From Pseudomonadota bacterium (GTDB taxonomy: Bacteria > Myxococcota > JACRCW01 > JAFGSX01), in the NCBI GenBank assembly GCA_043821645.1, contig JBDRCO010000119.1, positions 1 through 54,339 on the forward strand: DNA of 54,339 nt. The letters are read 5' to 3'. The notes beneath the pieces were generated by a model, which saw nothing but the letters and a program-made list of their open reading frames with translations, was not told the origin of the DNA and ran no database searches. Of this stretch, positions 3,400 through 51,004 are shown one piece after another (positions within the stretch are counted from its first letter, which is position 1; the number at the start of each line of letters is the position of its first letter). Position numbers and translations under genes: made by a program.

Positions 3400-4080
3400 T
3401 CAACTCCTTTTCTGAAGGCTCTGGATCAGATCGATGACGGCTTCGCGCTCGGCACTGCTGGCGACGTCGCAGACCTCGACCATCGCCATGGCGCGCGCCT
3501 CGATCACCTCACCGCTGGTGGCATCATCGTCCTCAGGCACCAGGCCCTGGTCAACGATCACGGCCAGGGCGCCTGCCTCGAGGTAGCTGGGTGCCGAGTC
3601 CACGTTGACGCCGCCAGAGACCACCAGCGGGATGTGGGGAAAGTGTGCGCGCAGGGTCGCCAGGTAATCCGGGCCGCCCAGGGCCTGGGCCGGGAACACA
3701 TTGACCAGATCCGAGGCACGCGATGCCACGACCACCTCGGTCGGGGTGGCGGCGCCCACGATCACCACCATGCCGCGGTCGCGCGCCATGCGGGCAAATT
3801 CCTCGTCGTAGAACGAGCTGAGCACGAACTGGGCGCTGGCCATCATGGCCAGGCTCACCTGCTCGGTGCTGTTGACCCGCGACATGCCCAGGATGAGGTT
3901 GCTGTCCTCGGCCAGTTCGCCCGCCACGTCGACAACGTCATCGAGGGTGGCAGGGATGCCGAGCAGCCGGATGCCACCGCGGACCAGGGCCTGCGCGCTG
4001 CGCAACAGCCGGTCGGGATCTGGCGTGTCGACCACGGCGATGAGGCCACGCTCGGCGATGTGGGAGAGAGTGTCGCGCAT
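3400..4080 (-). CDS. KDPG/KHG aldolase (Eda) family homologue, catalytically degenerate
   Basis: Fold motifs present (AQFVLS, GAATPTEV, FPAQALGGPDYL, SGGVN, YLEAGA). The Schiff-base Lys position reads N (LVNVFPA). Start placed at MRDTLSH. Confidence 0.8.
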   Translation of the reverse strand: MRDTLSHIAERGLIAVVDTPDPDRLLRSAQALVRGGIRLLGIPATLDDVVDVAGELAEDSNLILGMSRVNSTEQVSLAMMASAQFVLSSFYDEEFARMARDRGMVVIVGAATPTEVVVASRASDLVNVFPAQALGGPDYLATLRAHFPHIPLVVSGGVNVDSAPSYLEAGALAVIVDQGLVPEDDDATSGEVIEARAMAMVEVCDVASSAEREAVIDLIQSLQKRS

Positions 4081-4630: not shown

Positions 4631-6921
<2,291 letters not shown>

Positions 6922-45658: not shown

Positions 45659-47005
<1,347 letters not shown>

Positions 47006-47457: not shown

Positions 47458-47745
47458 ATGGCAGATCAGGATCTGGTCCAGGTGCACCTGCGCATCACCG
47501 GGCGGGTGCAGGGGGTGTGCTACCGGGCGAATGCCTGCGAGCAGGCGAAGGCCATGGGTTTGCGCGGCTGGGTGCGCAATCGCATCGACGGCAGCGTCGA
47601 GGCCATGGCCTTGGGAACACCACACAATATCGAGGCCTTCGTGACGTGGTGCGGTCAGGGGCCGAGCGCTGCTCAGGTCCAGCAGGTTGCCGTGCGCCAG
47701 GTCACGCCTGTCGAGGAGTGCCTCCCTTTCGAGGTCAGGTACTGA
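47458..47745 (+). CDS. acyP: Acylphosphatase
   Basis: GRVQGVCYR, GWVRNRIDGSVE, GPSAA.V, FEVRY; GGAGG RBS. Confidence 0.93.
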   Translation: MADQDLVQVHLRITGRVQGVCYRANACEQAKAMGLRGWVRNRIDGSVEAMALGTPHNIEAFVTWCGQGPSAAQVQQVAVRQVTPVEECLPFEVRY

Positions 47746-47810
47746 CAGCGCTGTCGTGGTTTTTAAACTTCCTTTCTTGCTGTAATTATTGAACATTTTA
47801 TTCAAGCAAC

Positions 47811-47850
47811 GCCGCGAAGCGGGCGCGGTCGCCACTTCGGGCCTTTTTTT
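47811..47850 (+). terminator. Probable intrinsic terminator downstream of acyP
   Basis: Interrupted GC stem (gcc/ggc, cgaag/cttcg, ggcg/cgcc) followed by T7. Confidence 0.6.
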
Positions 47851-47962
47851 ATCCCACCTCTGACAGGGATGTCCGGATTTCGCACCCAGGCCGATCTCCG
47901 GCCAGGGGCCGCTTTGTTTCTTAACGCATGTAGTAAAACAGAAATATCATAAATAGTTTGCC

Positions 47963-47978
47963 TGGCCCGAGCCTTGCT
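47963..47978 (+). promoter_or_regulatory. Sigma54 (-24/-12) promoter
   Basis: TGGCCCG-AGCC-TTGCT versus consensus TGGCACG-N4-TTGCW (one mismatch, exact spacing), with an AT-rich tract immediately upstream. Confidence 0.75.
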
Positions 47979-47987
47979 TTAAGGGAC

Positions 47988-48098
47988 GCCATCAAGTGAT
48001 GGCATGCGGTGTCACCCCGGTGCACCGTCGTTCGAGATGAAATTTAAAAGATGGTGATGGAATAGAAAGCCCCGGCCTCGGCCGGGGTTTTCGTTTTT
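47988..48098 (+). ncRNA. Candidate ~110-nt sigma54-dependent small RNA (three stem-loops)
   Basis: Begins at the predicted +1 with hairpin gccatc-aagt-gatggc; second hairpin 48007-48027; purine/AU-rich linker; ends in a terminator. Confidence 0.6.
48065..48098 (+). terminator. Strong intrinsic terminator
   Basis: 12-bp stem gaaagccccggc/gccggggttttc (one G-U pair), ctcg loop, then gttttt. Confidence 0.85.
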
Positions 48099-48198
48099 GG
48101 ACTCCCGGCTCGGAACGCCTGGCGTGGGCGGCGGATCACCCGGCATCTGCGGCGACCGCTTTCTTCGCCACTCTCCCCGGTCCGGCTACATTGTATCC

Positions 48199-49647
48199 AT
48201 GAGTCTGGCTGGCATCGCGGGTGTGCTGGGGGCGCTGCTCTGCGCCCAGAGCGAGGCCGCGCGCACCGGACCCGACGCCGTCGGCAAGCCCTGGGGGCGA
48301 ACGCCGGGCATGCACCAGTTTCGCGGCAACCCCAGCCACACCTGGTACGGCCAGGGCCCAGTGCCGGATCACCCTGTCGTGCTGTGGCGCTTTCCGCGCA
48401 CCGAGCGCATGTGTTCCCAGTCCGCGGTGGGCACGCAGGACAAGCGCTGGTGTGGCACGGGCTGGACAGGGCAACCGGTGCTGCGCGAGCTCGCCGATGG
48501 TCGCCACGAGGTCATCGTCGGGACCTTTGACAAGAGAGTGATCTTTCTCGACGGCGGCACCGGCGTGCGCACGCGCCCTGACTTCAAGGCGCACGACCTG
48601 GTCAAGGGTACGGTCAGTCTCGACCCCGATGGTTATCCGCTGCTGTATTTCGGCTCGCGGGACAACAAGCTGCGCGTGGTCGCCCTGGACAGGCCCCGGC
48701 CCACGGAGCTGTGGGCGCTGGACTCGAACGACTACCCCGGCCTGCACAACAACGACTGGGATGCCAATCCGAGTGTCGTCGACGATCTGCTCATCGAGGG
48801 CGGTGAGAACAGCTACCTGTTCACCGTGATGCTCCACCGCAGCCTCGACGCGGGGGGCCTGGCGCAGGTGCAGCCCGAGGTCAAGCTGGTGTACCCGGGC
48901 TGGACCCCTGAGCTGCTCGCCGAGCTTGGCGATCACAATGTCAGCATCGAGAACTCGCCCGCGGTGTTCGGCGACCGCATCTACTTCGCCAACTCCGGGG
49001 GCCGCATCGTGGGCCTCAACCTCGCCGCGGCGCGCGAGGGACGGGCCCAGGTCGAGTTCGATTTCTGGATAGGCGACGACGTCGACGCCAGCATCGTGGT
49101 CGACGCCCAGGGCATGCTGTATGTGGCGGCCGAGCTCGAGCGAAAGATCGCCCGGCCGCGCCAGGTCGGGCAGCTGGCCAAGCTGGATCCCTCGCGACCG
49201 CAGGATCCCCTGGTGTGGCGCCTGTTCGTGCCGGCCCTGGCCGGGGATCCGCGCGGCGGCGGCATCTGGTCGACCCCCGCCTTGCACCGCGACGTGCTGT
49301 ACGTGACCACGCAGTCGGGCAAGCTGCTGGTGGTGGACAGGGACACCGGGCACGTGCAGTGGTGGCAGACCCTGTCCAGTCACCTGTGGTCGTCACCGGT
49401 GGTGGTCGACGACACCTTGCTGGTCGCCACCTGCCAGGACGGAAAGATCCACGCCTACGATGTGAGCGAGCCCAGGACACCGAAGCCGCGCTGGGTGGTC
49501 AAGGTGGGCTGGGGCGGCTGCATCGAGAGCACGCCTCTGGTGTACAAGGGGCGCATCTACGTCGGAACCTGGGATGGCTTCGTGTACGCCCTGGGTGAGC
49601 GCACCGTGGCGCGGCGTCCAGCGGCGTCGAAGAAGAACAAGCGATGA
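48199..49647 (+). CDS. Secreted PQQ-like (BamB-type) beta-propeller protein
   Basis: Signal peptide; FRGN...YG; repeats IENSPAV, IWSTPAL, LWSSPVVV, IESTPLVYKGRIYVGTWDG. Confidence 0.85.
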   Translation: MSLAGIAGVLGALLCAQSEAARTGPDAVGKPWGRTPGMHQFRGNPSHTWYGQGPVPDHPVVLWRFPRTERMCSQSAVGTQDKRWCGTGWTGQPVLRELADGRHEVIVGTFDKRVIFLDGGTGVRTRPDFKAHDLVKGTVSLDPDGYPLLYFGSRDNKLRVVALDRPRPTELWALDSNDYPGLHNNDWDANPSVVDDLLIEGGENSYLFTVMLHRSLDAGGLAQVQPEVKLVYPGWTPELLAELGDHNVSIENSPAVFGDRIYFANSGGRIVGLNLAAAREGRAQVEFDFWIGDDVDASIVVDAQGMLYVAAELERKIARPRQVGQLAKLDPSRPQDPLVWRLFVPALAGDPRGGGIWSTPALHRDVLYVTTQSGKLLVVDRDTGHVQWWQTLSSHLWSSPVVVDDTLLVATCQDGKIHAYDVSEPRTPKPRWVVKVGWGGCIESTPLVYKGRIYVGTWDGFVYALGERTVARRPAASKKNKR

Positions 49648-49675: not shown

Positions 49676-51004
49676 TCACATGGCCTGGACGCGTTGCCAC
49701 ACCGCGGGCGTGCGGACGCGGCACTCGGCGGCGATCTTGTCCTCGTCGAGGGACAGGATCTGCTTGTTGCGCATCAGCACCTTGCCCTGGCAGATGGTGC
49801 TGTCGACCGTGGCGTCGACCATGCCGAAGATCAGGTGCCCCAGGAAGTTGTCCGCCGAGAAGGGTGTGGGGGGCACGTAGTCCACCACCACCGCGTCGGC
49901 GGGTCCGCCCACCACCAGCTCGCCGATGGGCATGCCGAACTGGCGCTGGGCCAGGATGCGCGAGTTGTCGAGCATCATCCGGGGTGCCTCCAAAAAAGCG
50001 ACGCGCGGATCCCCGGCGACGTGCCGGTGCAGCAGGTAGGCGCAACGCATCTGCGAGAACATGTCGCTGGACATGCCGTCGGTGCCCAGGGCCACCAGCA
50101 CGCCGCGCTCGAGCAGCTTCAGGGCCGCGGCCGCGCCCACGGCGTTGTTCATGTTGCTCTCGGGATTGTGCACGACCGTGGTGCCGGTCTCGTGCAGGCG
50201 CGCGTGCTCGCTCTCGTCGATGTGAATGCAGTGCACGAAGATGCTGTCGGGTCCGGCGAGGCCGAGGTCTGCCAGGCGGTGCACGACGCGCTTGCCGTGG
50301 GTGGCCAGGCTGTGCTCGACATCGGCCTTGTCCTCGGCGACGTGGATATGAAAGCCCGCGCCAAAGGGGGCCGCGGCCTCGACGCAGCGGCGGAGGGTCG
50401 CATCGCTGCAGGTGAAGGAGGCGTGCAGGCCCATCATGGCCTTCAGATCGCCGGACTTCTCCTCGGCGCAGCGGCGGATGAAGCGCGCATTCTCCTCGAT
50501 GTCGGCGCCCTCGACGTTGCGATCCGAGACCTCGTAGCACAGCGAGGCGCGCAGCCCGGCCTGGCGCACCGCGGTGGCGATGACGTCGAGGGAGCCGTCG
50601 CGGCAGCTGGGGCTGGCGTGGTGGTCGATGATGGTGGTGGTGCCGTTGCGGATGCACTCGATGAGCGGCACCAGGGCGCTCAGACGCACGTCTTCGAGCT
50701 GCAGGGCGCGGTCTATCTTCCACCACAGGCGCTCGAGCACCTGCACGAAGTTGGCAGCGGGCTCCCCCGGCGGGTTCATGCCGCGCGCCATCGTCGAGTA
50801 GAAGTGATGGTGCGAGCAGATGAGGCCCGGCAGGACCACGCGCCCGCGGGCGTCGAGGATCTCGTCGGCGCGCTCTGGCACCGTGGCTGCGGTGCCCAGA
50901 TGGGTCACGGTGCCGTTGTCCATGCGCAGGGCGCCGTTGACGATGACCTGGCTGTTCTCGCCCAGGGTCACCAGGGTGGCGTTCTTGATCAGCAGGCTGG
51001 CCAT
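49676..51004 (-). CDS. ssnA: Putative aminohydrolase SsnA
   Basis: PGLICSHHHFYSTMARG, NFVQVLERLWWKIDRAL, GTTTIIDHHASP, CYEVSDR, GLHASFT, HNPESNMNNAVG. Confidence 0.9.
   Translation of the reverse strand: MASLLIKNATLVTLGENSQVIVNGALRMDNGTVTHLGTAATVPERADEILDARGRVVLPGLICSHHHFYSTMARGMNPPGEPAANFVQVLERLWWKIDRALQLEDVRLSALVPLIECIRNGTTTIIDHHASPSCRDGSLDVIATAVRQAGLRASLCYEVSDRNVEGADIEENARFIRRCAEEKSGDLKAMMGLHASFTCSDATLRRCVEAAAPFGAGFHIHVAEDKADVEHSLATHGKRVVHRLADLGLAGPDSIFVHCIHIDESEHARLHETGTTVVHNPESNMNNAVGAAAALKLLERGVLVALGTDGMSSDMFSQMRCAYLLHRHVAGDPRVAFLEAPRMMLDNSRILAQRQFGMPIGELVVGGPADAVVVDYVPPTPFSADNFLGHLIFGMVDATVDSTICQGKVLMRNKQILSLDEDKIAAECRVRTPAVWQRVQAM

Follow-up and report, generated by a model that had tools for sequence, protein, structure and literature searches.

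A predicted sigma-54-dependent small RNA gene recurs beside different genes in an uncultured class of Myxococcota

Introduction

Between acyP and a PQQ-like β-propeller gene of an uncultured bacterium lies an intergenic region that a preliminary description, made from the sequence alone, took for a self-contained sigma-54 transcription unit without a protein gene. Does this region hold a gene for a small RNA (sRNA) in its own right, as was proposed there, or the attenuator leader of the propeller gene downstream, which was the alternative? And if it is an RNA gene, to which of the known kinds does it belong? Our literature search on the phylum found functional work on only one myxobacterial sRNA, Pxr; its targets are described as not yet identified (PMC11928866).

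The window analysed here, 54,339 nt long, is contig C119 of the source genome, G000 (7.07 Mb in 140 contigs, 94.7% complete). G000 is a member of the Myxococcota: the genomes flagged as belonging to the same phylum include Myxococcus-type carriers of Pxr. Its class counts four species in our genome set, G000 and G001 from one family and G002 and G003 from a sister family, the latter three assemblies being 82%, 92% and 96% complete, respectively. Here we describe the unit of G000, its counterparts in the class and the readings that they allow.

Results

The locus and its sequence data

The features of the locus are collected in Table 1. G000 carries a single rpoN; for the sigma-54 interaction domain it gives 45 matches, of which 37 score above 180 bits. 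Within the window, the sole AAA+ signal is a 23-bit match at 6094-6447.

Table 1 Features of the locus in the window. Positions are those of the window; centres of the palindromes are relative to the predicted start.
Feature	Position	Strand	Sequence	Remarks
rho	45659-47005	minus		
acyP	47458-47745	plus		
Intergenic region				453 bp, between acyP and propeller gene; contains the RNA unit
Distal palindrome	47744-47755		GACAGCGCTGTC (context CTGACAGCGCTGTCG)	Overlaps acyP stop codon; centre ~ -239; candidate activator site
Proximal palindrome	47862-47873		GACAGGGATGTC (context CTGACAGGGATGTCCGG)	Centre ~ -121; candidate enhancer (UAS)
A/T box	47949-47958		ATAAATAGTT	Between enhancer and promoter; conserved
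Putative sigma-54 -24/-12 promoter	47963-47978	plus	TGGCCCGAGCCTTGCT	GG at 47964-5, GC at 47976-7; canonical spacing
Hairpin 1	47988-48003	plus	GCCAUCAAGUGAUGGC	6-bp stem; predicted 5' end; specific to G000
Hairpin 2	48006-48028	plus		
Unpaired A/U-rich region	48029-48064	plus		Unpaired to ~48059 in the minimum-energy fold; proposed seed
Micro-ORF	48037-48057	plus	ATG AAA TTT AAA AGA TGG TGA	Encodes MKFKRW
Conserved 8-nt motif	48056-48063	plus	GAUGGAAU	Single-stranded, directly before the terminator
Intrinsic terminator	48065-48098	plus	U tract GTTTTTGG	Stem 48065-48092, 12 pairs (8 G-C), UCGG loop
Further short ORFs	48012-48146 and 47921-48025	minus		
PQQ-like β-propeller gene	48199-49647	plus		
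Amidohydrolase gene	49676-51004	minus		

Four sequencing runs were examined of the 22 listed (X2, X4, X5 and X21), and those that hold the unit's sequence are DNA only. Contigs of the DNA runs X2 and X4 cover the RNA unit with 0 differences and thus represent the same organism, adding no variation. Contigs of X21, a metatranscriptome from the same study, gave no cover of the unit and are neutral on its expression.

A sigma-54-type promoter with conserved upstream elements

The near-consensus -24/-12 element noted in the preliminary description is present, and the start predicted from it, at ~47988, coincides with the base of hairpin 1 in G000. By itself this promoter motif could be a chance occurrence: of TGGC-N8-TGCW the window has 13 copies, 4 of them with TTGC, where 6.9 ± 2.4 would be expected. 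Likewise, the promoter word TGGCCCGNGNCTTGCT is found in 96 of 401 genomes, and among the 30 loci fetched G000 and G001 alone carry the unit. In G001 the promoter reads TGGCCCGGGTCTTGCT, identical to that of G000 at 14 of 16 positions, with both changes in the spacer; in G002 it reads TGGCGCGGCCGTTGCT. All three carriers of the unit keep the -24 GG and the -12 GC at canonical spacing. Upstream of this promoter, G000 also has a sigma-70-like TTAACG-18-TATCAT at 47921-47950; inspecting the G001 and G002 sequences by eye, we saw no matching -35/-10 pair.

Two GACA-N4-TGTC palindromes precede the promoter. The distal one has a counterpart in the homologous place of G001 (GACAGGTGTGTC), 228 nt before TGGC as compared with 219 nt in G000. 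The proximal one starts 101 nt before TGGC in both genomes, despite intervening indels, and the palindrome of G002 (TGACAGACCTGTCAGG) lies 126 nt before its promoter. The G000 genome contains 88 such sites, and the two described here are the sole pair within 250 nt of each other. A promoter-like motif is found 60-160 nt away from 7 of the 88 sites, versus 28 of 934 for eleven control palindromes. The extended form CTGACA-N4-TGTC is found 34 times in all (12 in G001, 12 in G002 and 10 in G003), whereas the reversed control gives 5 (0, 2 and 3). At their conserved spacing, these palindromes are candidate binding sites of an activator.

Between enhancer and promoter lies the A/T box, which is the same ATAAATAGTT in G001 and reads ATAATAGTT (CATAATAGTTTG) in G002. 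Its distance to the promoter varies across the three genomes (14, 28 and 56 nt). By eye, the box is no more than an approximate match to the IHF consensus given in PMC3045617; it is a possible bending or IHF-type site.

A predicted short, terminated transcript with an unpaired conserved word

The 111-nt stretch that follows the promoter folds at -47.9 kcal/mol (z = -4.59), and none of 200 shuffles folds as well. The structural elements reported earlier are all there: hairpin 1 at the predicted +1, hairpin 2, whose limits had been placed at 48007-48027 and are each one nucleotide further out, and the 12-bp terminator with its U tract. Hairpin 1 aligns to a 17-nt gap in G001 and is an insertion specific to G000. 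Hairpin 2 aligns with a hairpin of G001 in which 3 pairs are changed on both sides, a weak sign of covariation since only two sequences are compared.

The exposed stretch between hairpin 2 and the terminator had been proposed as the seed of the RNA. It is indeed unpaired over 48029-48059; its conservation, on the other hand, is confined to the last 8 of 31 nt, GAUGGAAU. With its flank the word, G-N-GAUGGAAU (G-N-GATGGAAT), shows no difference between G000, G001 and G002 and is unpaired in each of their folds. Degenerate copies of it occur elsewhere in the G000 transcript, as GAUGGUG in the unpaired region and GAUGGCA in hairpin 1, and in the centroid fold the former pairs alternatively with CACCGUC. 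The ATG inside GATGGAAT encodes M-E-stop in G000.

The terminator differs between genomes: G001 keeps the stem and has no U tract, while the G+C-rich hairpin of G002 is one of its own, with GUUUUG after it, and in a covariation analysis over three sequences the G002 stem aligns out of register.

Upstream, the unit had been thought to be insulated by a terminator of acyP. A T7 run with a hairpin does exist at 47822-47850; the hairpin, however, is weak and imperfect, the acyP 3' region (47746-47860) folds with z = -0.23, and it is not among the matches of the terminator scan.

The unit recurs beside different genes

We found the unit in three of the four genomes of the class (G000, G001 and G002), each time beside different genes. 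The parts come in a common order: GACA-N4-TGTC, the A/T box, then TGGC-N7-TTGCT, next a short stretch without coding sequence that closes with GAUGGAAU, and last a terminator. Neither hairpin 1 nor the micro-ORF is among the conserved parts.

G001 shows acyP, ATAAATAGTT, TGGCCCGGGTCTTGCT, ~60 nt of unrelated sequence and GATGGAATTGAAAGCCCCG...CGGGGCTTTCG, followed by a radical-SAM gene. The transcribed middle cannot be aligned between G000 and G001: in the transcribed region they share, beside the promoter, only the 8-nt motif and the terminator. The G002 unit, which was uncovered by following the palindrome into G002 and G003, sits between two genes, one divergent and of the Fic/DOC family, the other convergent, and therefore cannot be a leader. 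Its RNA, of ~135 nt, has four copies of UGGAAUG, the last of which (GAGAUGGAAUGAGA) is unpaired before the terminator, and folds with z = -3.5. In G003, where a convergent gene directly follows acyP, the unit was not found with the two patterns tried, including promoter plus GATGGAAT.

That last pattern gave 24 matches in 19 of 401 Myxococcota genomes, versus 2 in the reversed control; on inspection of all 24 loci, only those of G000, G001 and G002 are genuine. Pattern searches did not find the unit in the remaining genomes of this 401-genome phylum sample. A covariance model built from two sequences (R1) and run on 150 genomes scored 154 bits in G000 and 129.5 bits in G001, with the next match at 27.5 bits at most; the five of these loci that we inspected lack the combination of promoter and motif, and as R1 missed G002 too, its negatives are weak. 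When 47940-48110 served as the query of a BLAST-type search, 41 genomes returned only a terminator-only match in G015, and the true homologs were missed: DNA similarity searches are blind here, and synteny succeeds.

Relatives of the propeller protein occur in 4 of the 41 genomes (54-58% identity) and, in a metagenome scan, at 5 loci (46-59%). The combination of promoter, palindrome and motif is absent from all 8 propeller-relative loci (L004-L011, 46-59% identity). At two of these (L005 and L006), the propeller-relative frames, G031:C60:602-1894 and G015:C48:23241-24533, each contain one in-frame TGA, which could reflect selenocysteine, a frameshift or two genes.

A separate observation concerns two loci of one genus, L047 (G194:C3) and L048 (G197:C1). 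Both have TGGCCCG-N-G-N-CTTGCT from 1501 on the minus strand, followed by the nearly identical, untranslated-looking CAGGGCCGCCCTCAGGGGACTCACACAGGGTGATGTAATC..., possibly another sigma-54-driven RNA.

Since the flanking genes differ in each genome, the unit behaves as a free-standing gene and not as a leader of the propeller gene. The locus probably holds a non-coding RNA gene of ~105-110 nt (~47988-48098, plus strand), transcribed with sigma-54 and belonging to a family specific to this uncultured class of Myxococcota. Sequence and conservation together point that way: a -24/-12 promoter, two palindromes, an A/T box, a terminator of its own and no conserved ORF. The enhancer-controlled, stand-alone sRNA of the preliminary description gains support from the same recurrence beside different genes. 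Weighing against this reading, the unit is known from three genomes, and the structure covariation comes from two sequences.

Comparison with known RNA families

Nowhere in the window does a match attain the gathering score of its Rfam family; the best permissive match, rsmX, scores 28.7 bits against a threshold of 56. Looking up the sequence of the unit likewise brought no look-alike.

The RNA had been likened to Pxr, a resemblance that holds for its kind, a stem-loop sRNA behind a sigma-54 promoter, and fails for its family, with no match in sequence or structure. Searched with the Pxr model (RF01812), 47750-48250 gave no match at E<=10 and the whole G000 genome no match at E<=1; membership was set at a covariance score of at least 80 bits. 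As a positive control, the model scored 129.2 bits at the Myxococcus locus L050, and with the published probe we located Pxr in five Myxococcus-type genomes. Pxr identity is rejected, given the absence of a model match and the neighbours acyP and the PQQ-like propeller gene.

The likenesses are nonetheless several. Pxr, found in M. xanthus and other Cystobacterineae of the same phylum, is ~108 nt long with multiple stem-loops, and a sigma-54 promoter is predicted for it, preceded by a region for enhancer binding, as for the RNA described here; sharing this kind of promoter is no evidence of homology. Pxr is also an intergenic gene with its own terminator (PMC5568312). M. xanthus is reported to have no hfq and Pxr is thought to be Hfq-independent (PMC5684412). 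The differences lie in place and in functional element. PMC5568312 puts Pxr always between nla19/pxrR, a sigma-54 activator gene, and an NADH dehydrogenase gene, whereas the present unit follows acyP or lies elsewhere, with no activator gene nearby. The functional element of Pxr is the SL1 loop, while here the conserved word adjoins the terminator.

At L050 (G123:C20), we note a -24/-12 element, TGGCACGGCGACTGCT, before Pxr (1441-1480), with its GC at 1454-5. This GC precedes the start of the Rfam Pxr match, at 1480, by 25 nt, versus the usual ~12, and the primary transcript of Pxr may start upstream of the Rfam model.

GlmY and GlmZ of Enterobacteriaceae have the same promoter architecture as the unit: a sigma-54 promoter, several TGTC/GACA activator sites (GlrR: TGTCN10GACA) and IHF-type sites between enhancer and promoter (PMC3045617). 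GlmY is a decoy for RapZ (PMC7073468). They belong to another phylum and bear no sequence relation to the present RNA, whose half-sites are arranged as GACA-N4-TGTC. Their activator is a two-component response regulator, while here an FHA-GAF protein with a link to a Ser/Thr kinase is the candidate. The Qrr RNAs of Vibrio require Hfq and LuxO. In contrast, Hfq was not found in G000, and the RNA has no sequence similarity to Qrr. These too are short, sigma-54/activator-dependent, base-pairing sRNAs that end in a terminator (PMC10162802).

The unit combines a promoter of the sigma-54 type, upstream sites, rpoN and enhancer-binding proteins encoded in the same genome, and independence of its flanks. 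It is best read as a member of the functional class of sigma-54/activator-dependent sRNAs, as Pxr, Qrr and GlmY/Z are, and of none of those families.

Alternative explanations

The alternative that survives best, which we still regard as unlikely, is that the locus has no functional RNA and carries signals at the level of DNA only: transcription factor sites, a neighbour's terminator or an orphan sigma-54 site such as has been reported within E. coli genes, any transcript being without a role. Sigma-54-like motifs are frequent, the transcribed middle is poorly conserved, and widespread non-canonical sigma-54 binding has been described at genome scale in E. coli (PMC4591121). Such a scattering of signals does not readily account for promoter, palindrome, A/T box, 8-nt motif and terminator occurring together in three genomic contexts. 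Moreover, in all three genomes the terminator of the predicted transcript comes directly after the motif, which lies in the transcribed part and in G002 is multiplied there.

Could the RNA instead titrate a protein? Repeated (A)UGGAAU(G) would then bind an RNA-binding protein, of the CsrA/Rsm type or another, whenever the sigma-54 activator is on; we give this little credence. The core of a CsrA/RsmE site is A-N-GGA-N, and AUGGAA fits it. The RsmX/RsmY/RsmZ sponges (clan CL00106) are likewise short, with GGA-containing repeats and a strong terminator. The copy number of the repeat varies between species, as it does in sponge RNAs: GGA occurs 5 times in G002 (four times as UGGAAUG) and twice in G001. 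G000 encodes CsrA and yields the weak rsmX match (RF02144; E = 0.0016). Yet that match is far below the gathering score, and the homologs in G001 and G002 give none at E<=10. The multiple exposed GGA of Rsm sponges is not seen either: the G000 transcript has a single one, and most of the G002 repeats lie inside a long stem, not in loops. The conserved word, at 8 nt, is also longer than a GGA site requires. None of G001, G002 and G003 yielded a CsrA, absence not being proven at the completeness of these assemblies; the genome with the most repeats, G002, is thus left without a partner. A CsrA sponge is unlikely, and identity with rsmX is rejected, in view of the sub-threshold score, the one GGA of G000 and CsrA not being found in the relatives.

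The only csrA copy of G000 (1501-1740 of locus L013, its neighbourhood being 575-2147) lies on contig C86. From their translations, its neighbours look like the flagellar flgL (hook-associated/flagellin-type) and fliW. As CsrA was not found in three relatives, contig C86 may be lineage-specific or a binning contaminant.

A decoy could also address a protein other than CsrA. In this version the RNA would be the non-coding, repeat-bearing output of a pathway from Ser/Thr kinase through FHA-GAF activator to sigma-54, and its (A)UGGAAU(G) units, of which each RNA has one to four, would titrate that RNA-binding protein. We consider it improbable. If true, it would place a protein-sponge sRNA system outside Gammaproteobacteria and couple it to kinase signalling of the eukaryote-like type.

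Far less plausible is a cis-acting leader, in which a terminator-gated sigma-54 transcript, possibly with MKFKRW, would control the propeller gene. The unit is oriented as that gene and ends 100 nt upstream of it, the micro-ORF exists as described, the centroid fold offers its alternative pairing, and read-through is conceivable in G001, whose terminator has no U tract. Synteny largely refutes attenuation: the downstream gene is the propeller gene in G000, a radical-SAM gene in G001 and a convergent gene in G002, and none of the 8 propeller-relative loci has the unit's combination of elements. Nor is there a conserved leader peptide, as MKFKRW is absent from G001 and G002; the leader put forward as the alternative in the preliminary description falls with it.

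That the locus is a small-protein gene or encodes a dual-function RNA, with MKFKRW or a peptide from either strand, is hardly credible: short ORFs do exist on both strands (Table 1), but none is conserved, and the ATG at 698 of G001 opens an unrelated 72-codon frame.

A candidate activator

Returning to the sigma-54-dependent sRNA gene, we looked at what might drive it. Contig C65 of G000 carries, downstream of a Ser/Thr kinase gene, the gene of an FHA-GAF-AAA+-HTH enhancer-binding protein. A GACA-N4-TGTC palindrome lies ~35 nt after its stop codon and 99 nt before a good sigma-54 promoter of a lipoprotein-like gene. Around the G001 ortholog, which is 77% identical, this arrangement recurs: the spacing is 98 nt and the downstream gene is orthologous; the G002 ortholog has no exact palindrome site on its contig. 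The operon of the C65 activator is itself preceded by a perfect CTGACAGCAATGTCAG, at C65:39856.

Palindromes precede sigma-54-like promoters at four positions in G000 (C65:44879, C68:155907, C68:144347 and C108:6652). To judge from the translations, the genes at these promoters are Cys-rich and start with lipoprotein-like signal peptides. The four promoters make up a small candidate regulon of the FHA-GAF activator. Because the palindrome stands at a matching distance (98-101 nt) from the sigma-54 promoter beside the activator gene and in the RNA unit, we propose that the RNA belongs to this regulon. The C65 protein would bind the GACA-N4-TGTC palindromes upstream of the RNA gene, and the RNA would be the non-coding member of a small regulon otherwise driving lipoprotein-like genes. 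We advance this binding as a possibility, somewhat on the doubtful side: the assignment draws on motif sharing only, and the spacing in G002 is 126 nt, not 101.

Mode of action

The RNA may act in trans by base-pairing through the single-stranded GAUGGAAU, without Hfq, at or near the ribosome-binding sites of mRNAs. We hold this tentatively, at close to an even chance. Base-pairing is favoured because the word is 8 nt long, invariant and single-stranded, and also by a duplex found in G002. There, nt 29-50 of the RNA form a duplex of -23.3 kcal/mol with the Fic gene's Shine-Dalgarno region, made of 10 perfect pairs plus flanks (segments GGGAUGGAAU and AUUCCAUCCC). The leader of this Fic/DOC gene (L105, G002:C28, ~4036-4070, plus strand) has AUUCCAUCCCC directly before GGAGG, complementary to the first repeat of the adjacent, divergently transcribed sRNA. 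Only 0.1% of 5000 random genomic windows gave a local duplex as good, for a pairing that was spotted post hoc. With the whole RNA against the Fic leader, 96 of 1000 shuffles were as good, which leaves the local duplex as the one significant result.

In G000, none of the sites considered, in leaders, in the Fic ortholog or on contig C76, makes a credible target. Seed complementarity of at least 7 nt is missing from the leaders of the regulon candidates, five in G000 and two in G001; the G000 ortholog of the Fic gene does not carry the complementary site, and the C76 site was dropped, being ~90 nt from a start codon. ATTCCATC occurs 60 times in G000, which is no enrichment over the ~64 occurrences estimated by hand from base composition.

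Implications

An uncultured sister lineage of Myxococcota would thus have an sRNA family of its own, unrelated to Pxr and under the same kind of predicted sigma-54 control. For the study of this family, the unit supplies a defined enhancer motif, a candidate FHA-GAF activator encoded beside a Ser/Thr kinase gene, and an invariant 8-nt word.
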